The notes under the pieces were generated by a model, which saw only the letters and a program-made list of their open reading frames with translations, made no database searches and was not told where the DNA came from. Positions 3,334 through 11,302 of a stretch of 64,000 nt of DNA are shown piece by piece. Within the stretch, counting starts at the first letter, position 1. The number at the start of each line of letters is the position of its first letter. Both the position numbers and the translations under genes were made by a program. Source of the stretch: Candidatus Heimdallarchaeota archaeon (lineage in GTDB: Archaea > Asgardarchaeota > Heimdallarchaeia > Hodarchaeales > Hodarchaeaceae); assembly GCA_020353515.1 (NCBI GenBank), contig CP070695.1, positions 2,706,155-2,770,154 of the forward strand. Reading direction: 5' to 3'.

Positions 3334-6074
3334 TTCTCCTCTATTTTCTTCTCTAATTCTCGCATATCGTTGACAATATCATCTAACTGCTGGAGTGCTT
3401 CTATTGGTGTTTTATAATTGATATCAATATCTGTGTAATTTTTTAAGAATGCTAGAATCTCAAATTTTAGATTTTTCACCTCTTCTTCAAATCGTTGTTG
3501 ATCAACGTTTTTTGAGAGAGCCTCAGCTAGAGACAATTGTCTAGGCTGAGTCCCTATTTTTTCTTTATGTTGAGGTGTTGTTGGAGAGTCAGATGTTGCT
3601 TCCAGCTCCAATAATTTCTTTTGAGCTTGAAGGATGACTTGTTTGGGAATTCCAGCCATTTTAGCTACGCTAATCCCAAATGAATGGTCAGTTGACCCCT
3701 CTTTAATTTTGTAAAGTAACACTAGCTTCCCATTTCGCACTTTAGCTGTTTGGTGATAATTTTTAACAACTGAATATTGATTTTCTAATTCGCTCAATTG
3801 GTGATAATGTGTGGCAAAAAGTGTCTTACTCTTCTTCTCTTTTGCAATATACTCTGCGATAGCCCATGCTAAGGATAAACCATCAAAAGTACTAGTTCCA
3901 CGTCCTACTTCGTCTAGAATTATCAAAGAATTTGGAGTAGAATTGTGAAGTATATGAGCAGTCTCAAGCATTTCAAGCATAAAAGTCGATTGTCCGAACG
4001 CGAGTCTATCGAACGCACCGACACGGGTGAAAATTTTATCTGTTATACCTAGCTGACAATTTTTTGCAGGCACCCATGACCCAGTTTGAGCCATTAACAC
4101 AATGAGAGCTGCTTGTCTGATAAAAACTGATTTTCCTGACATGTTGGGACCAGTTATGATATGAAGATCTCCATTCTTTAAGGAAATACTGTTAGGAACG
4201 AATCCTGTCTCTTTCTGCAGTTTTTCTACGACAGGATGACGACCATCAATGATAGAAATGATTGGTTCATTAATGAATTGAGGTTTACAGAAGTCATTTT
4301 TCATTGCTGTAAAGGTAAAACAAACCAATACATCTAATTCAGCGATTAATTCGGAATAGCTACGAATAATCCCTACTTTCTGAGAGATTTTTTCACGAAT
4401 TTCACAAAATAGTTGATATTCTAGCTCCTTAATTTTCTCATCAGCATTCAGGATTTTTTCTTCGATATTCTTTAGTTCAGGGGTAATAAAGCGTTCTGCA
4501 TTGACCAATGTTTGTCGTCTTACATATTCATGTGGAACAGCCTCTTCACCTGCGTCACGTAGCTGAGCCTTTGTAACTTCGATGTAATATCCATGAATTG
4601 AATTATATCCTAATTTAATGTTGAATGATGTCCTCTCTTGCTCCCGCTGTTCAATTTCATTCAATATTGAATCTTGATTTTTCTTTAATTCAAGCAACTG
4701 GAGTAAATCATCATTATAACTTGGTTTAATGATTTCCCCATCTCGGATTGATACTGGTGGAGATTCATGTATTCCGCTATCTATCAAACTGATAACATGT
4801 TTAAGATCTGAAACGTCAAAATTTAAGATTTTTTTGCAGATAGGACTAGTTAACTCACTTTTTTTGAAAAAAGCTAAGATTTCTAAACAAAAATTTAATG
4901 AATTTCTTAGAGAGATTAAATCTCTTGCATTTACTGAACGATACTTTATTTTAGCAACTAGCCTTTGAAAATCAGCAACATTGGAAAGTAAGTCACTAAT
5001 TTCTTCTATCAGGGCTAAATCCTGTTGAAAATCTTCTATTGCATTCAATCGGGCATTAATTTCGTTAGGATCGCGTAAAGGTTGCAATAACCACCTTCGA
5101 ATTAATCTAGCACCCATACTAGTATTGATATCAGTAAAAATGGATAATAAACTGCCTTCGATCTTTCCATCAAAAGCATTACTATTAATTTCAAGATTTC
5201 TTTGAGTATTAGAATCGAGTATTAAATGATTTCGATTATCTAGAGTTCGTAAAAACGATATATTACTTGGATAATCTTTTTTAAGCATTTTTAGATAGGA
5301 AATGATTGCCCCAGCGGCTTGTATTCCCTCAACCATAGAATCACAACCATAACCTGCCAGGGATCGAACTTCAAAATGATTCAGTAAGGTTTGAGCTGCC
5401 GTATCAAAATTGAAAAGAGTTTCATTTACAGGGTACACTACAGTCTGGGAGGTGGAGGTTATCATTTTTTCTATAGTATTTTGGAGTTTTCCTTTTTGTT
5501 GAATATCAGGAAAAATCACTTCTCGAGGATTAAAACGAGAGAATTCGTCCTGAAAATTATCAACAACATTTTCATTAAATTCTGTTACTAAAAACTCTCC
5601 AGTGGAGATATCAATAAACGATAAACCTATCGTTTGCTTTTTTTCATTAACCGTGAAACTTAAAAGAAAATTGTTTGTGTCTTTATCTAGTATCGATGTT
5701 TCAAAAACTGTTCCTGGTGTTACAACGCGTGTAACTCCTCTTTTTACAATTTTCCCTGACGGAACATCCTTAGCATCTTCTAATTGGTCTACAATCGCGA
5801 CTTTATAACCCTGATCTATCATTTTTTTTAAGTACGTATCTATTGCTTTGACAGGAACCCCTGCTAGAGGAATTCTCTCTCCACCTGCTCCCATTCCTCT
5901 TGAGGTCAGGGTAATATCGAGTGCTTTAGAGGCTATTTTTGCATCATCATTAAATGTTTCGTAAAAATCCCCTAACTGGAAAAACACAATAGTGTCTTCA
6001 TGATCCTTCTTAATACGATAATACTGTGCCATAGCTTTTGTTACTTTGCCTGATTTTCCACTCATTAGGGCCAT
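3330..6074 (-). CDS. mutS: DNA mismatch repair protein MutS (MutS1 type)
   Basis: GDFYETF mismatch-binding motif, ITGPNMSGKS, STFMLEM, DEVGRGT, FATHYHQL; 4-nt overlap with mutL. Confidence 0.97.
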   Translation of the reverse strand: MALMSGKSGKVTKAMAQYYRIKKDHEDTIVFFQLGDFYETFNDDAKIASKALDITLTSRGMGAGGERIPLAGVPVKAIDTYLKKMIDQGYKVAIVDQLEDAKDVPSGKIVKRGVTRVVTPGTVFETSILDKDTNNFLLSFTVNEKKQTIGLSFIDISTGEFLVTEFNENVVDNFQDEFSRFNPREVIFPDIQQKGKLQNTIEKMITSTSQTVVYPVNETLFNFDTAAQTLLNHFEVRSLAGYGCDSMVEGIQAAGAIISYLKMLKKDYPSNISFLRTLDNRNHLILDSNTQRNLEINSNAFDGKIEGSLLSIFTDINTSMGARLIRRWLLQPLRDPNEINARLNAIEDFQQDLALIEEISDLLSNVADFQRLVAKIKYRSVNARDLISLRNSLNFCLEILAFFKKSELTSPICKKILNFDVSDLKHVISLIDSGIHESPPVSIRDGEIIKPSYNDDLLQLLELKKNQDSILNEIEQREQERTSFNIKLGYNSIHGYYIEVTKAQLRDAGEEAVPHEYVRRQTLVNAERFITPELKNIEEKILNADEKIKELEYQLFCEIREKISQKVGIIRSYSELIAELDVLVCFTFTAMKNDFCKPQFINEPIISIIDGRHPVVEKLQKETGFVPNSISLKNGDLHIITGPNMSGKSVFIRQAALIVLMAQTGSWVPAKNCQLGITDKIFTRVGAFDRLAFGQSTFMLEMLETAHILHNSTPNSLIILDEVGRGTSTFDGLSLAWAIAEYIAKEKKSKTLFATHYHQLSELENQYSVVKNYHQTAKVRNGKLVLLYKIKEGSTDHSFGISVAKMAGIPKQVILQAQKKLLELEATSDSPTTPQHKEKIGTQPRQLSLAEALSKNVDQQRFEEEVKNLKFEILAFLKNYTDIDINYKTPIEALQQLDDIVNDMRELEKKIEEK

Positions 6075-6292
6075 TTCTCGTATTTCTTTAACTACAAGAG
6101 AAAAATTATAATCATATTTATTAAATCTTCCTCAGATTAGCAAAATCACTTAAAAACATCGATGTTCATCATTTAATAATTAGGTCAGGGTAATAAAAAT
6201 GATTCATTAGAATAAAATCAAAAGATGAATCATTCATCTTCCTTTAAAACACCTAGAAAAAAAAAGTAAGCAACATATTATTGTAGCGAATT

Positions 6293-6377
6293 GCGGGGGT
6301 CTCCCAGCCAGGTCAAAGGAGCTAGGTTCAGGTCCTAGTCGCATAGGCGTTCGTGGGTTCAAATCCCACCCCCCGCA
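6293..6377 (+). tRNA. tRNA-Leu(CAG)
   Basis: Acceptor GCGGGGG/CCCCCGC, anticodon arm CTAGG-TT CAG GT-CCTAG, long variable arm, GTGGG-TTCAAAT-CCCAC; no intron, no encoded CCA. Confidence 0.95.
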
Positions 6378-6397
6378 TGATTATTGGTTGTATGAAA

Positions 6398-6534
6398 GCC
6401 GAGGTAGCCAAGCTCGGATTAAGGCGCTAGACTCGAGTTACTATTTCATCATCCGAGATATCTAGTGTGCTTTGCACGCGTGGGTTCAAACATCACAGAA
6501 GTGAGTTCTCTGATTGGAAGTCCCACCCTCGGCG
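6398..6534 (+). tRNA. tRNA-Ser(CGA) with two introns (37/38: 6438-6459; 59/60: 6491-6520)
   Basis: Acceptor GCCGAGG/CCTCGGC; removing 22 nt gives CTAGA-CT CGA GA-TCTAG; removing 30 nt gives GTGGG-TTCAAAT-CCCAC; both junctions fold as BHB-type motifs. Confidence 0.9.
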
Positions 6535-6933
6535 TTCCTCACAGTATCATTATCAAACTTAAGGACATCTTGCCATTTCTATTTCTCCCTCTAACATGGG
6601 TGGGTGGCATTCATTGTTGGGGCTTTCTTCACAAACAAAGAATGAGTGGATTGAAGCAGAACTTTTTTCAATTCCCTTATTATCCCTATTTTTTTCTTTT
6701 TTATTTGATCACTTCAGAGATGATTCTAGTAATTTTCAAGATATCGGTAATTGTATCACAAAATAATTAAGTTAAAAGCAGAGTAGGCGTACCTTTGCAG
6801 GGTTACTAAAATAGCTCACAAGTATACCCACTCTCATCCAGAAAACAATTTGGAAATACTAGAACATCTATTTGGATTAAAGACCCTTATTAGGATGCCA
6901 AAGTACTTTTCAATAATACCTAGGTGACAATTA

Positions 6934-7803
6934 GTGGACATTGAAAATGCAATAGCAGAAATTCAAGAAAAATTTGGTGTCGTGGGACGAGACGCGTCAC
7001 TTCGTAAACTCATCCTGGGAAAGCAGGCCAGTAAGCATATCATCATTGAAGGACCAGTGGGTGTCGGAAAAACAACACTAGCTCATGCCGTTGCCGCATA
7101 CTTCGACCAGGGGTTTATACGGATTGATGGTGATGAACGCTATACTGAAAGCAAATTAGTTGGTCATTTTGAACCTCCTTTAGTAGTAGAAAAAGGTTGG
7201 ATTTGGGATGCTTTTGTTCCAGGTCCATTGACGTTAGCAATGAAAAATGGATCGATATTATTCATTAATGAAGCTAATCGATTAATAGAGGGAACTCAAA
7301 ACGTTTTACTGCCTTCTATGGATGAAGGATTACTTATTTTACCCAAACTTGGGGTTATTAAAGCTGCAGATGGTTTTCTCGTTGTTGCAACACAGAATCC
7401 AGAGTCATATATTGGTACCACAGTCCTTTCAGAAGCACTTAAAGATCGATTCGTCTGGATTAAACTAGAACATCAAGGATTCGAGGAGGAGGTCGATATT
7501 GTTGAGCAGAAAGCGGATATTGGACCAGAAGATCGGTTGATTTCTGAGACTGCTACAAAAATTACAAGAGCAACACGCAAACATCCCGATATTCGTCGTG
7601 GGTCATCAATTCGTGGAGCAATTGATCTTGCGAAAATTTTACACCTTGTAAAAAGCTTAAATCTAGAAACAGTTTCTGAAATGTCTATAATGACTCTTGC
7701 CACTAAAATTGAACTGGAAGATGGAGTCGAAAGACCAATCGAAGATGTCATACATGAAATTGTTGAAGCCATTCTTTCAGGGGACGAAGACCGTTTTTTA
7801 TAG
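6934..7803 (+). CDS. MoxR-family AAA+ ATPase
   Basis: EGPVGVGKT Walker A, LFINEANR Walker B variant, VVATQNP sensor I, LSEALKDRF Arg finger, GSSIR; GTG start with AGGTGA SD. Confidence 0.9.
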   Translation: MDIENAIAEIQEKFGVVGRDASLRKLILGKQASKHIIIEGPVGVGKTTLAHAVAAYFDQGFIRIDGDERYTESKLVGHFEPPLVVEKGWIWDAFVPGPLTLAMKNGSILFINEANRLIEGTQNVLLPSMDEGLLILPKLGVIKAADGFLVVATQNPESYIGTTVLSEALKDRFVWIKLEHQGFEEEVDIVEQKADIGPEDRLISETATKITRATRKHPDIRRGSSIRGAIDLAKILHLVKSLNLETVSEMSIMTLATKIELEDGVERPIEDVIHEIVEAILSGDEDRFL

Positions 7804-7828
7804 ATAAATCCCGAGAGTTTGCTCGGGA
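7794..7828 (+). other. Putative -1 programmed ribosomal frameshift signal (slippery heptamer plus hairpin)
   Basis: T TTT TTA (7794-7800) in phase just before the TAG of the AAA ORF; 8-nt spacer; stem TCCCGAG/CTCGGGA (7809-7815/7822-7828); the -1 frame is the vWA frame. Confidence 0.75.
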
Positions 7829-7859
7829 GTACAACAAGAACATTCGTCTGTTCGGCAGA

Positions 7860-8870
7860 TTGAAACTGGAAGATCTCGCAGAAGCAGCTATTGCTGCAGG
7901 AGATACACTTCCAAAGCTGGATAAATTAGACTTAGCAAGCATAGAGCGGTTAACTGAATCAGCGATTGAACATGAGAATCTTCCTGCCTTAATGTCTTTA
8001 GCTAAAATTAACAAATATGCTGTTTCCAACACATTAAATACTGATAGAATAGTTTCTTTAGGTCGAGTGGCTGGATCTGGGGGGGTTTATACACCTCGGC
8101 TTTATTTTGTTATGAGAGGTGTCCTTGATATCAAACGGAGAGCAATCCTGAAACGTTTAACTCGTACATCAATCTTGAAATTATCTCTCAGAATTGCTTC
8201 CGAAGGATTACGAGGAGATTTACCTGTCCGAGGAGAATACCAACCTGAAAGTGATTTTGATTTAGACGCGACGATGGACCAGTTATTAGAGAGGTATCCG
8301 ACAGGTATTCCAACCTTGAAGAGAAGTGATATCATTGGGATCGAGAGACGAGAACGGAAAAAAAATGGGGTACTCATCCTAGATGCTAGTGGTTCGATGA
8401 TGGGGGAACGGAATATTAACGCGGCGTTATCTGCCGCGGTAATGGCCTATTCAATGCGACACGATAAATTTGGAGTCATTGCATTCAATACTAAGGCATT
8501 TTTGATCAAAGGAATCAAAGATGAGCTCACTATCCAAGATATCATGGATAGAATACTCGATTTAGAAGCAGTAGGATACACCAACATTGAAGATGCCCTA
8601 AGAGAAGGGGCATTACAATTGAAGGGGCTAAAAACACGATTTAAATGGGCAATTTTGTTAACAGATGGCGCTTATAATAAGGGAGATGACCCACGCTACC
8701 TTTGCAAGAAGTTTGAGAAATTACACGTGCTGAATTTACCAGGAGGTAAAAAATGGGGAGAACGTGTCTGTAAAGACTTAGCTCGCCTTGGTGGTGGGCG
8801 CTATGTGGTCGTTAGAAGTTATCATGAAGTTCCCAGAGCCCTTATGAAGATTCTCAGGGCTCCTTGGTAG
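7860..8870 (+). CDS. vWA (MIDAS) domain protein, MoxR partner; probably expressed as the C-terminal part of a frameshift fusion
   Basis: LILDASGSM (DxSxS), GYTN, LLTDG; only a TTG at 7860 without an obvious SD; frame is open from 7767. Confidence 0.88.
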   Translation: MKLEDLAEAAIAAGDTLPKLDKLDLASIERLTESAIEHENLPALMSLAKINKYAVSNTLNTDRIVSLGRVAGSGGVYTPRLYFVMRGVLDIKRRAILKRLTRTSILKLSLRIASEGLRGDLPVRGEYQPESDFDLDATMDQLLERYPTGIPTLKRSDIIGIERRERKKNGVLILDASGSMMGERNINAALSAAVMAYSMRHDKFGVIAFNTKAFLIKGIKDELTIQDIMDRILDLEAVGYTNIEDALREGALQLKGLKTRFKWAILLTDGAYNKGDDPRYLCKKFEKLHVLNLPGGKKWGERVCKDLARLGGGRYVVVRSYHEVPRALMKILRAPW

Positions 8871-9361
8871 AAATTAAATCTTCGTTTTCCACTGAAAGTA
8901 TATTGGGATTATTTGTGAATATCGGGATAGAGAAAGCTGGAGTTCAAGCATGGTTTGTTTATCGACGTATAGATAGAATAATTCTCTATTCTCGTATTTA
9001 TTCTGCGCTAGCAGGCGACATAACACCAGAAAAAGCTGTTGCTTTCAGCGAAATTTCAACAACACTTCTTCATCAGATAAAAAGTCATTATCCTTGGATA
9101 CAGGCTGAAAAATTGCATAATATCGAACTTGACACCCATGAAATCCGAACTCTTTACGGAAAATTCGTTATGCTGGTTCTCATCGCACGACGGGGAAAAT
9201 CGGTTAAAAAAGTCTATCAGTTACACGAAAAAATGCTTTCAATTATAGAAACAGATGCGGAAGGACGTTTGGCTTCTCAAGTTCATGAACCAGAAATTCT
9301 CAGCGATATTTGGGTAAAATGCGAAGAATTATTACGTCCTTACATCATTCATTTATTCTAG
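8864..9361 (+). CDS. Hypothetical protein, longin/roadblock-like fold
   Basis: 165 aa, overlaps the vWA stop; beta-beta-alpha-beta-beta-beta-alpha-alpha pattern (IILYSRIY...IELD..EIRTLYGKFVMLVLI...LSIIE) resembling Asgard longin domains. Confidence 0.5.
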   Translation: MVEIKSSFSTESILGLFVNIGIEKAGVQAWFVYRRIDRIILYSRIYSALAGDITPEKAVAFSEISTTLLHQIKSHYPWIQAEKLHNIELDTHEIRTLYGKFVMLVLIARRGKSVKKVYQLHEKMLSIIETDAEGRLASQVHEPEILSDIWVKCEELLRPYIIHLF

Positions 9362-9373
9362 AATATGAAAATC

Positions 9374-10114
9374 TTAGATCTCCTGGTTGAGAACGTGCCG
9401 TAAACGATCAGGATAATTGGTCAGTAATCCATCTACACCTAAGTTCAATACTCGTTTCATTTCATCTGGCTCATCAGCATAAAAATAAAATACTCTAATG
9501 TCATTATCATGACATTTGTTTAAAAAGGATGTTTCAAGTGCAGAGGGACGTATTTGAGCAGTTTTCAGTTTTAACCTTGATATTATTTTGAAGTATTCAG
9601 TAGGACTCCGTTCTTTTTGTAACAGGGCATAATCTATTTCAGGATCAATTTCCTGTAACCTGCTAATATTTTCTTCATATCTAGCTGTTATCACAGTTCT
9701 ATCTTCTATCTTATGTTTCTTAATGATGCTGATTATCTCATTCTCAAACCAATTCGTGCCAGGATCGTAATACTTCAATTCGATGTTATAGTGAATATTC
9801 GTGGATGAGGTTTCCTCTAATACTTCTGGAAATGTGGGGATTCTTTCTCCTTGGTACTTTTGGTCAAACCAGCTCCCCGCATCTAATGATCTTAAATATT
9901 CAAATGTTAAATCTGGTATCCTTCCTTTTCCATTCGTTGTTCTCTCTATCCCATGACGATCATGGTAGACCACAAGCTGAGAGTCCTTTGTTGGTTGGAT
10001 ATCAAATTCTATCATGTCAGCAAAAATTAAACCCTGTTTAAAGCAAGTAATTGTGTTTTCGGGACCTAAACCTGCCCCTCCACGATGAGCAATATTCAAC
10101 ACTAATGGTTTCAC
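9374..10114 (-). CDS. Glycerophosphodiester phosphodiesterase
   Basis: IAHRG, PENT, IEFDI, VYHD, NIELK, GVDGLLTNYPD. Confidence 0.93.
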   Translation of the reverse strand: MKPLVLNIAHRGGAGLGPENTITCFKQGLIFADMIEFDIQPTKDSQLVVYHDRHGIERTTNGKGRIPDLTFEYLRSLDAGSWFDQKYQGERIPTFPEVLEETSSTNIHYNIELKYYDPGTNWFENEIISIIKKHKIEDRTVITARYEENISRLQEIDPEIDYALLQKERSPTEYFKIISRLKLKTAQIRPSALETSFLNKCHDNDIRVFYFYADEPDEMKRVLNLGVDGLLTNYPDRLRHVLNQEI

Positions 10115-10469
10115 CTAGAATATTAAAATGATCAGAATGTTAATTCATTTACGAAAACCATATGGTAAGAAATGCATTACTTAATGACCTGGTAAGAAGC
10201 TTCATATCATGTTTCATTCCCACCCCTACCTTTCCTTCTACTGGAGATTCTCTTTTAATAATAATTTTATATCTTACCATATGATATTATATATTCTCAT
10301 AACATAAATAATAATTGGTTTAAACAAAAAAGTCACAAAAATCTTAGAAAAAATTCTTTTCTTTTTCTCAAATAGAGAATAAGATCTACTTTTTAAGGAA
10401 TTAACCTTTTTTTGTCGTATTTATTTCCTTTATAAACCAATAATTTTTTTAGATTATCTAGTTCCACAT

Positions 10470-10497
10470 GTTCCATCGGAAATCAACGGGTAAGGGG
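10470..10497 (+). promoter_or_regulatory. ORB-like Orc1/Cdc6 binding box
   Basis: GTTCCATCGGAAATCAACGGGTAAGGGG matches TTCC-N3-GGAAA plus G-rich tail. Confidence 0.6.
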
Positions 10498-10602
10498 TTC
10501 CGACTTTATTCCACAAATTACATTAAATCCCAAGAAGCACAAAAGTTGTTTGTAAAAAAGAAAGATTAACGGCAATTAAATGGTAACTAATGATGAAAAA
10601 CA

Positions 10603-10896
10603 TTACGCTATTCGATAAAAAACTTTGGGTCTTCCTTTTGTTCTCCTAGGTGTTGAAAATTTTATTACAACTTTTTTTAATATCAATCTGTTTAACGCAT
10701 CATAAATAGTTGTTCTAGGAATTCCTGTTTTTTTACATAACTCCGTTCGTGTAGTGGGTTGAATTTCTGACAAGACACTCAAAACAATTCGATCTGTCTC
10801 ATTAGTTAATTCATTCTCTGGTATACTTGAATGTTTTAAATCAAAATCATCTTTTTCCTTTTTTGATGATAGAGAATTCTGAAGATATTGTGTCAT
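10603..10896 (-). CDS. TrmB-like winged-helix protein
   Basis: TTRTELCKKTGIPRTTIYDALNRL...KGRPKVFY; paralog of 12366-12662. Confidence 0.8.
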   Translation of the reverse strand: MTQYLQNSLSSKKEKDDFDLKHSSIPENELTNETDRIVLSVLSEIQPTTRTELCKKTGIPRTTIYDALNRLILKKVVIKFSTPRRTKGRPKVFYRIA

Positions 10897-11302
10897 ATCT
10901 TATCACTAGTATCTTTATATCACTGTTACTTAACCTTACAAATGGCCATATTTAAGACTTTCAGTATATCATCAATGTTAAAGATAACAAAAACACCATG
11001 AATAAGTATTTATAAAAAATATCCATTTACAAATCTAATATCGTTAAAAGAGATGATAGATTCACACACTTAGGTCCTAATGCTGAGATTAATCAATGAG
11101 CTTTTTACTCACATTGAAATAAGTCTCACATCCTTTCACAGGAAGTGTAGGTTAAAATGGTGTTAAGTGTTGTATTTTCCCTGATAAATGAACTATCCGT
11201 TATATAATAGGTGTTAATGAATTTTAATATTGATATTCGCTCTTTTAGCAAGATTCATAAACATGTTGATTAAAAAAATATTAATTCACAGTAGCTATTC
11301 TC

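Follow-up and report, generated by a model that had tools for sequence, protein, structure and literature searches.

In the frameshifted chlD genes ('magnesium chelatase'/cobalt chelatase medium subunit), termination gives an AAA+-only subunit and −1 frameshifting gives an AAA+–vWA subunit, both from one locus; in-frame fused homologs occur in other organisms, and the archaeal cases include those of Methanocaldococcus and Methanococcus (Antonov et al. 2013, PMC3711429; Kuznetsov et al. 2022, PMC9227772; reviewed in PMC5009743). The only cellular −1 frameshift that has been shown experimentally in Archaea is that of fucA1 of Saccharolobus solfataricus (2021 review, PMC8211752). For CbbQ–CbbO, in which a MoxR AAA+ hexamer is combined with a vWA adaptor, the stoichiometry CbbQ6:CbbO1 has been published: six ATPase subunits bind one vWA adaptor (PMC4660213). 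Here we compare with these systems a locus found in a 64,000-nucleotide stretch of DNA (the window; positions 2,706,155 to 2,770,154 of contig CP070695.1, assembly GCA_020353515.1) from Candidatus Heimdallarchaeota archaeon, a member of the Hodarchaeales. The window is part of a single-contig genome of 4.94 Mb. In it, an AAA+ ATPase gene is followed by a vWA gene, and, judged from sequence comparison, the two are best read as one recoded gene in this archaeon and its relatives. Programmed −1 ribosomal frameshifting, which would yield a 289-amino-acid (aa) ATPase and a 645-aa ATPase–vWA fusion, appears to be the best reading of the locus, and we regard it as probable.

Arrangement of the two reading frames

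The features of the open reading frames (ORFs) and of their junction are as follows, with positions counted from the first letter of the window.

6934..7803, forward strand: 0-frame ORF for a 289-aa MoxR-type AAA+ ATPase (Pfam AAA_5, AAA_3), with a GTG start
7794..7800, forward strand: slippery heptamer T_TTT_TTA in the X_XXY_YYZ phase, abutting the stop
7801..7803, forward strand: 0-frame stop TAG, the end of the ATPase-only product
7801–7808, forward strand: spacer TAGATAAA, 8 nucleotides (nt), between the heptamer and the stem
7809..7828, forward strand: candidate stimulatory hairpin, with a 7-bp stem TCCCGAG (7809–7815)/CTCGGGA (7822–7828) and a 6-nt loop AGTTTG
7800..8870, forward strand: −1 frame after the slip (ATA GAT AAA ...), 356 codons, for a linker, a helical middle domain and vWA/MIDAS
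7860..7862, forward strand: TTG, the sole canonical start candidate of the vWA frame

The ATPase ORF ends with the codons CGT (7792–7794), TTT (7795–7797), TTA (7798–7800) and TAG (7801–7803), and the −1 frame, closed by a TGA at 7764–7766, is open from 7767 to 8870. The anatomy at 7794–7828 is canonical for −1 frameshifting. A first-pass annotation, made from the sequence alone, had described the in-phase heptamer abutting the stop, the 8-nt spacer, the 7-bp stem, the TGA at 7764 and the frame open from 7767, and all of these coordinates and frames were reproduced. Its naming of the two halves as a MoxR AAA+ ATPase and a vWA protein agreed with the Pfam matches (AAA_5/AAA_3 and VWA_2/VWA_CoxE, above the cut-offs), and its proposal that −1 recoding gives the 289-aa ATPase and the 645-aa fusion was supported by every computational check that it had put forward. 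One detail had to be given up. The AGGGGA at 7779–7784, suggested to be a 5′ stimulator resembling a Shine–Dalgarno (SD) sequence, is present, but the Gly codon at its core varies freely among GGG, GGA, GGC and GGT in relatives; because of this variation at the third position, the stimulator was rejected.

The heptamer alone is no rarer than expected by chance: the window has 70 copies of TTTTTTA, and 68 would be expected. Its conservation, on the other hand, exceeds chance. Since the heptamer and the hairpin taken alone are not beyond chance, the case rests on the comparison with relatives.

Codon usage at such sites was also surveyed in the long ORFs of the whole genome. T_TTT_TTA was found to be the most depleted Phe–Leu codon combination, with an observed/expected ratio (O/E) of 0.65 as compared with 1.38 for C_TTT_TTA and 1.20 for T_TTC_TTA. 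T_TTT_TTT was the most depleted Phe–Phe combination (O/E 0.73), and the other Phe–Leu and Phe–Phe combinations lay at 0.9–2.1. The depletion of in-phase T_TTT_TTA and T_TTT_TTT fits selection against slippery sites, or against T-runs generally.

Conservation of the slip site

The comparison covered the junctions of 19 genomes belonging to the genus, 2 to the same order and 32 to the same class, produced in several studies and with several assemblers. In 21 of 21 loci (19 of the genus and 2 of the same order), T_TTT_TTA is kept together with the −1 relation between the two frames, and the seventh position of the heptamer is A, never G, in all of them. The stop after the heptamer is less uniform, being TAG, TAA or TGA among the relatives. 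In two loci (L015 and L016) it lies one codon further 3′, with the heptamer, the 8-nt spacer and the stem unmoved.

The slip site is conserved beyond what the protein requires. Among the 202 conserved amino-acid columns of the ATPase ORF whose codons are degenerate, only six use one codon throughout (18 sequences), and three of these six are codons 287–289, that is, the last three codons CGT TTT TTA, whose synonymous sites are constrained. At the nucleotide level (1567 aligned nt, 17 species), no invariant run is longer than the 10-nt CGTTTTTTAT at 7792–7801, which contains the heptamer. Every other invariant run is of 5 nt or less, the stem arms TCCCG and CGGGA accounting for two of them.

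Fused orthologs lacking the signal

A search for longer relatives of the ATPase provided hundreds of single-chain AAA_5–vWA proteins of 598–716 aa, which originate from Asgard archaea, Njordarchaeales, Bathyarchaeia, Methanomethylicia and Nitrososphaerales. The four closest of these fused orthologs (P0002–P0005; 61–66% identity, 647–655 aa) are colinear with the conceptual 645-aa product through the junction and the IRLFG motif. In the DNA of the closest fused orthologs, neither a T-run nor a hairpin was found at the junction. They thus serve as a natural control: the junction signal is missing where the gene is fused, which ties the signal to the split arrangement.

In the AlphaFold model of one of them, P0004 (predicted local distance difference test score 86), the AAA+ domain occupies residues 1–290, the helical domain 314–424 and the vWA domain 431–644. 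The frameshift junction maps to the start of the only disordered segment, 288–311. Because the slip site maps to the start of this disordered linker, the 0-frame product would be a complete ATPase.

The hairpin downstream of the heptamer

The hairpin in the window starts 8 nt after the heptamer and folds at −12.1 kcal/mol. Across the genus, 98.3% of the stem cells are paired, a share that does not exceed 64% if the 3′ partner is shifted along the sequence; the loop, by contrast, is free to vary. One stem pair, A–U, is replaced by G–C in two distinct sequences and by G–U in two others. Two codons within the stem, TCC (Ser) and CGG (Arg), are fixed at their third positions, although CGG is rare (7.6% of the Arg codons genome-wide); the Arg codons nearby take five different forms.

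Other lineages carry hairpins of their own. L020, which belongs to a different genus, has an unrelated hairpin, again 8 nt after the heptamer, that is stronger (−29.5 kcal/mol, z-score −4.7). Three loci of the more distant family f5 (L055, L073 and L075) have their own 9-bp hairpin 7 nt after a T-rich heptamer, and by inspection its arms change together among the three genomes: ACUG/CAGU, GCUG/CAGC and GCUU/GAGC. As far as can be judged from the sequences, the f5 hairpin is a second, independent stimulator in the same gene family.

Coding constraint upstream of any vWA start

If the vWA frame had its own start, the TTG at 7860 would be the candidate in the window. The ten −1-frame codons preceding this TTG show entropies of 0.25/0.00/1.22 at codon positions 1/2/3, and these are indistinguishable from those of the twenty codons that follow it (0.34/0.04/1.36). 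Since the codon-position entropy matches that of the coding sequence after the TTG, the region 7830–7859 is inferred to be translated in the vWA frame as well. At the position of the TTG, the relatives have TTG, TTA, CTT, CTC, CTA or ATG, the TTG being lost in most of them, and in three loci (L003, L007 and L011) there is no ATG, GTG or TTG across 64 conserved vWA-frame codons. No SD sequence was found upstream of the TTG at 7860, unlike the ATPase start with its conserved SD sequence. The TTG is probably just a Leu codon.

We also considered whether a leaderless vWA transcript might be made from the T-rich element, acting as an internal TATA box. This candidate was rejected: no start codon lies at the right distance, L015, L016 and the families f3 and f5 have no TATA-like sequence yet keep the U-run, and the −1 frame is coding upstream of any start.

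The first-pass annotation had drawn its proposal from a single sequence, and the checks that it proposed on other genomes turned out in its favour. The heptamer and the −1 relation are kept in every one of the 21 loci, the hairpin is conserved with one compensatory change, and other lineages have unrelated hairpins at equal spacing; in-frame fused orthologs colinear through the junction exist (647–655 aa in the closest ones), and there is no conserved independent vWA start. The T6 run, which it had left to be confirmed, proved to be real, as described below.

Recurrence across Heimdallarchaeia

The split arrangement with a U-run, a stop and the −1 relation recurs across Heimdallarchaeia. The vWA frame is −1 in family f3, whose loci end in GAT TTT TT[C/A/T] plus a stop, as well as in family f5, most of whose loci end in T_TTT_TT[T/C/A] plus a stop, with TTT TCT in one. 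The families f3, f5, f6 and f7 have a conserved ATG about 62 nt downstream, with GAGG 4 nt before it. In f3, the ten codons upstream of this ATG evolve as coding sequence (entropy 0.50/0.37/1.10).

Family f4 (L025, L026, L029, L058, L059, L061, L063–L066 and L077) shows another arrangement, its vWA frame being +1 and its ATPase ending ...AAG TTT TTT CGG.... The stop is followed, 10–13 nt on, by an ATG in 11 of 12 loci. The f4 arrangement could reflect an own start, a +1 shift at UUU CGG, or the loss of one U in the RNA. A +1 frameshift at TTT TTT CGG was not adopted as its reading, the ATG 10–13 nt past the stop being kept in 11 of the 12 loci.

Alternative explanations

The ATPase and the vWA protein could be the products of two separate genes, with no fusion being made. 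The vWA protein would then be self-started, either from a non-canonical codon inside the frame or by termination–reinitiation where a codon overlaps the stop (ATA in ATAG/ATAA, ATG in ATGA). An ATA or ATG does occupy the overlap position in 17 of the 19 genus loci, the TGA stop of L012 and L020 provides the classic ATGA overlap with ATG, and distant families retain the downstream ATG preceded by GAGG. However, an ATA at the overlap arises automatically from TTA followed by TAR and is thus not independent evidence, and L015 and L016 have AGT there yet retain the heptamer, the spacer and the stem. Separate genes would also leave unexplained both the synonymous invariance of CGT TTT TTA and the absence of the element from the fused orthologs, which show that the two halves work as a single chain. 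The vWA frame has no SD sequence, in contrast to the locus' real start, and its TTG is lost in most relatives, three of which have no canonical start in its place. We consider this explanation quite improbable.

In transcriptional slippage, RNA polymerase would add one U in the U6 run, so that some mRNAs would encode the in-frame fusion and the ribosome would not slip. The invariance of the T-run fits this mechanism as well as it fits ribosomal slippage, and a T-run is common to all the split forms, including f4, in which the loss of one U would fuse the frames. Nevertheless, six U are short for polymerase slippage, the known cellular cases having mostly 7–9 or more. A hairpin located 3′ of the run cannot act on the polymerase before being transcribed, but a hairpin 7–8 nt downstream is conserved, or replaced by an unrelated one at the same spacing, in three lineages; the presence of such a structure downstream of the slip site favours a ribosomal rather than a transcriptional mechanism. 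Likewise, the invariable A at the seventh position of the heptamer is relevant to the re-pairing of tRNA, not to the polymerase. Transcriptional slippage is accordingly judged very improbable. As for a decaying or mis-assembled single AAA–vWA gene, split by a recent frameshift mutation or by a homopolymer sequencing error, fused orthologs do exist and T-runs are error-prone. But the same T6 run plus stop is found in about 20 separately assembled metagenome-assembled genomes from several studies, and an independent Logan contig of the probable source run crosses the site without a gap. Of the four runs compared, this was the only one to cover the junction, and it did so as a contig; the other DNA runs and the one metatranscriptome reached no more than the flanks of relatives. 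On the agreement of this contig with the separate assemblies, an assembly indel is excluded. Both ORFs are moreover under purifying selection, with drift at third positions. The probability left to decay or mis-assembly is practically negligible.

Programmed −1 frameshifting is itself subject to several points that weigh against it. The hairpin of the window is short and alone only modestly stable (z-score −1.8), the covariation within the genus concerns one pair only, and L019 has no clear hairpin. Part of the stem conservation is at the protein level, since conserved Ser and Arg residues are encoded there. Copies of the heptamer are frequent in this AT-rich genome, whose 2326 long ORFs contain T_TTT_TTA in phase 333 times, which means only a mild depletion (O/E 0.65). 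The relatives share ancestry, and thus the loci are not independent observations. In L012 and L020, reinitiation could act additionally at the ATG that overlaps the TGA stop, and independent initiation may coexist with frameshifting in f3, f5, f6 and f7 because of their conserved ATG with GAGG upstream. Finally, the support for frameshifting comes from sequence comparison only. What this comparison gives is the signal, its conservation, the fused orthologs, and coding constraint where the −1 frame has as yet no start; the slippage event, its efficiency, the co-assembly and the stoichiometry are inferred. As comparative support, this is about as strong as sequence data can give.

Proposed expression of the locus

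Under programmed −1 frameshifting, a single transcript would bear both ORFs, and translation would begin at the GTG at 6934 behind the conserved SD sequence. Most ribosomes would terminate at the TAG at 7801 and release the complete 289-aa MoxR-type AAA+ module. A fraction of them would be paused by the hairpin that begins 8 nt further on, at a moment when UUU in the P site is paired with tRNA-Phe and UUA in the A site with tRNA-Leu. Stimulated by the hairpin, these ribosomes would make a tandem −1 slip on U_UUU_UUA and go on reading in the −1 frame (ATA GAT AAA ...). The termination product would thus end in ...EDRFL, and the frameshift product would read ...EDRFL-IDKSRE.... The 645-aa product is predicted to consist of the AAA+ domain, a flexible linker, the helical domain and vWA/MIDAS.

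The two products would be expected to co-assemble into one hexameric ring, since their ATPase module is identical, and only some subunits of such a mixed ring would carry the vWA adaptor. The frameshift efficiency would set the share of the vWA-bearing subunits, and a modest efficiency would give mixed rings with few vWA arms. The published CbbQ6:CbbO1 stoichiometry provides a rationale for a sub-stoichiometric vWA subunit here. A bolder extension is that the frameshift is an ancient, class-wide device of Heimdallarchaeia, with its efficiency tuned to about five plain ATPase subunits to one vWA-bearing subunit per ring; we regard this as rather unlikely. If true, such a tuned ring of about 5:1 would reproduce in non-covalent form the six-AAA-to-one-MIDAS layout seen in midasin (and in CbbQ6O1), and the locus would be the first case in Asgard archaea of a conserved cellular −1 frameshift setting the stoichiometry of a molecular machine.

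Domains and other features of the locus

The remaining features of the two ORFs are listed below.

6923..6927, forward strand: SD-like GGTGA, 6 nt 5′ of the GTG start of the ATPase ORF
7051–7074, forward strand: Walker A motif GPVGVGKT of the ATPase ORF, intact
7258–7278, forward strand: Walker B region LFINEAN of the ATPase ORF, with Asn for the usual Asp
8370..8669, forward strand: vWA domain with an intact MIDAS: DASGS at 8382–8396, the T in GYTN at 8574–8585 and the D in LLTDG at 8655–8669

In the genus loci whose ATPase 5′ end lies on the contig, GGTGA is kept 5–6 nt before a GTG or TTG start, and it thus serves as an internal control for a genuine start. The ATPase ORF, the length of which equals that of stand-alone NorQ/CbbQ, matches AAA_5 with 66 bits (cut-off 22) and AAA_3 with 51 bits (cut-off 27), both exceeding the gathering score. 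The vWA ORF matches VWA_2 with 34.1 bits (cut-off 27) over aa 202–301 of P0001 and VWA_CoxE with 27.1 bits (cut-off 26.4), and the MIDAS residues DASGS, T and D are kept family-wide. A Walker B motif of the form hhhINE, in which Asn replaces the Mg-binding Asp usual in AAA+ proteins, was observed in the window and in all 19 homologs aligned (P0002–P0069). Judged from the motif, this Asn–Glu Walker B may mean altered or regulated ATP hydrolysis.

Three further observations concern the surroundings of the locus and its copies. A 165-aa ORF (8864–9361, forward strand) overlaps the vWA stop. It was rejected as a third component, having no Pfam match and being present only in the closest relative, and it is probably not a conserved gene of the ATPase–vWA module. 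The genome contains two more AAA+/vWA gene pairs (L031 and L032; G000:C1:2931451-2932023 and 1767753-1768517), in which the ATPase is 33–35% and the vWA protein 23–30% identical. In one relative, a partial second copy of the last 40 or so vWA codons (L007, G003:C24:875-1000, and L035/L036), with 76–78% identity and one internal TAA, adjoins the intact gene on the 3′ side.

Comparison with known systems

By fold, the closest solved systems are NorQ–NorD and CbbQ–CbbO, each a MoxR AAA+ hexamer with one vWA adaptor. This comparison was run on the fused ortholog P0004, not on the window's own protein, and its model matched NorQ with a template modelling (TM) score of 0.85, CbbQ with TM scores of 0.81–0.84 and the vWA domain of NorD with about 0.6. 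The likeness has its limits: sequence identity is only about 20%, and the Walker B motif here is Asn–Glu. In addition, NorD and CbbO are separate gene products that dock on the ring, whereas the adaptor here would be covalently joined to an ATPase subunit by recoding.

By sequence, the window's ATPase (6934–7800) finds its best match among solved structures in eukaryotic midasin, with one of whose AAA modules it aligns at E 7.8e-34; bacterial NorQ/CbbQ follow at a wide distance (about 1e-10; 7.8e-11 for NorQ). Midasin (Rea1), an AAA+ protein of eukaryotic ribosome biogenesis, likewise has AAA_5 modules, a linker and a C-terminal MIDAS, with six AAA to one MIDAS, but its six AAA modules stand in tandem in one chain, whereas there is one AAA module per chain here. 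For the vWA half, a sequence search against solved structures matched no chain, the midasin MIDAS domain included, and in the structure search with the P0004 model the Rea1 MIDAS domain ranks only 49th. The case sits in Asgard archaea, in a family whose ATPase may be the closest prokaryotic relative of midasin and dynein modules. Heimdallarchaeia are the archaeal group nearest to eukaryotes. The descent of midasin and dynein from MoxR has been proposed (PMC3495828).

As in fucA1, a cellular archaeal gene is laid out in two ORFs, and where these overlap there is a slippery heptamer with a putative stem-loop. The 0-frame product of fucA1, however, is an 81-aa fragment that does not function, and the arrangement is limited to a single species. 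At the present locus, the 0-frame product is predicted to be a complete ATPase, and the signal is kept across the genus, the order and much of the class. A full-text literature search, whose incomplete coverage makes it weak evidence of novelty, returned no description of such a case for MoxR-type or Asgard genes, and the supplements of Antonov et al. (2013) mention no AAA_5, vWA or MoxR clusters. Annotation pipelines split such loci in two and give the vWA gene an arbitrary start, so that gene models in dozens of Asgard genomes would be affected.

The closest precedent for this locus is the frameshifted chlD, which likewise has an AAA+-only and an AAA+–vWA product from one locus and in-frame fused homologs elsewhere. 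The two differ in the AAA+ family, which is AAA_5/AAA_3 (MoxR, NorQ/CbbQ-like) here and not of the chelatase type. Consistently, the ORFs of the locus gave no match to Pfam Mg_chelatase (PF01078) at E ≤ 0.01, and the chelatase models of NCBIfam scored far below their cut-offs (TIGR02031 BchD-ChlD, 27.4 bits against 499.55; TIGR02030, 18.7 against 466.95; TIGR02442, 27.1 against 779.45). No chelatase large subunit (ChlH/CobN-like) was found among the ORFs at 5500–11000 or among the genes beside the fused orthologs, a search that took in no other part of the window or genome. They differ also in the signal: the published chlD slip sites are A_AAA_AAR or long poly-A, whereas a U-run and a hairpin abut the stop here. 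If frameshifting at the present locus is true, the production of AAA+ alone plus AAA+–vWA from one gene, as known from chlD, arose again in another AAA+ family and with a different slip signal, and such a repeat origin would point to a general need to fix the motor-to-adaptor ratio.

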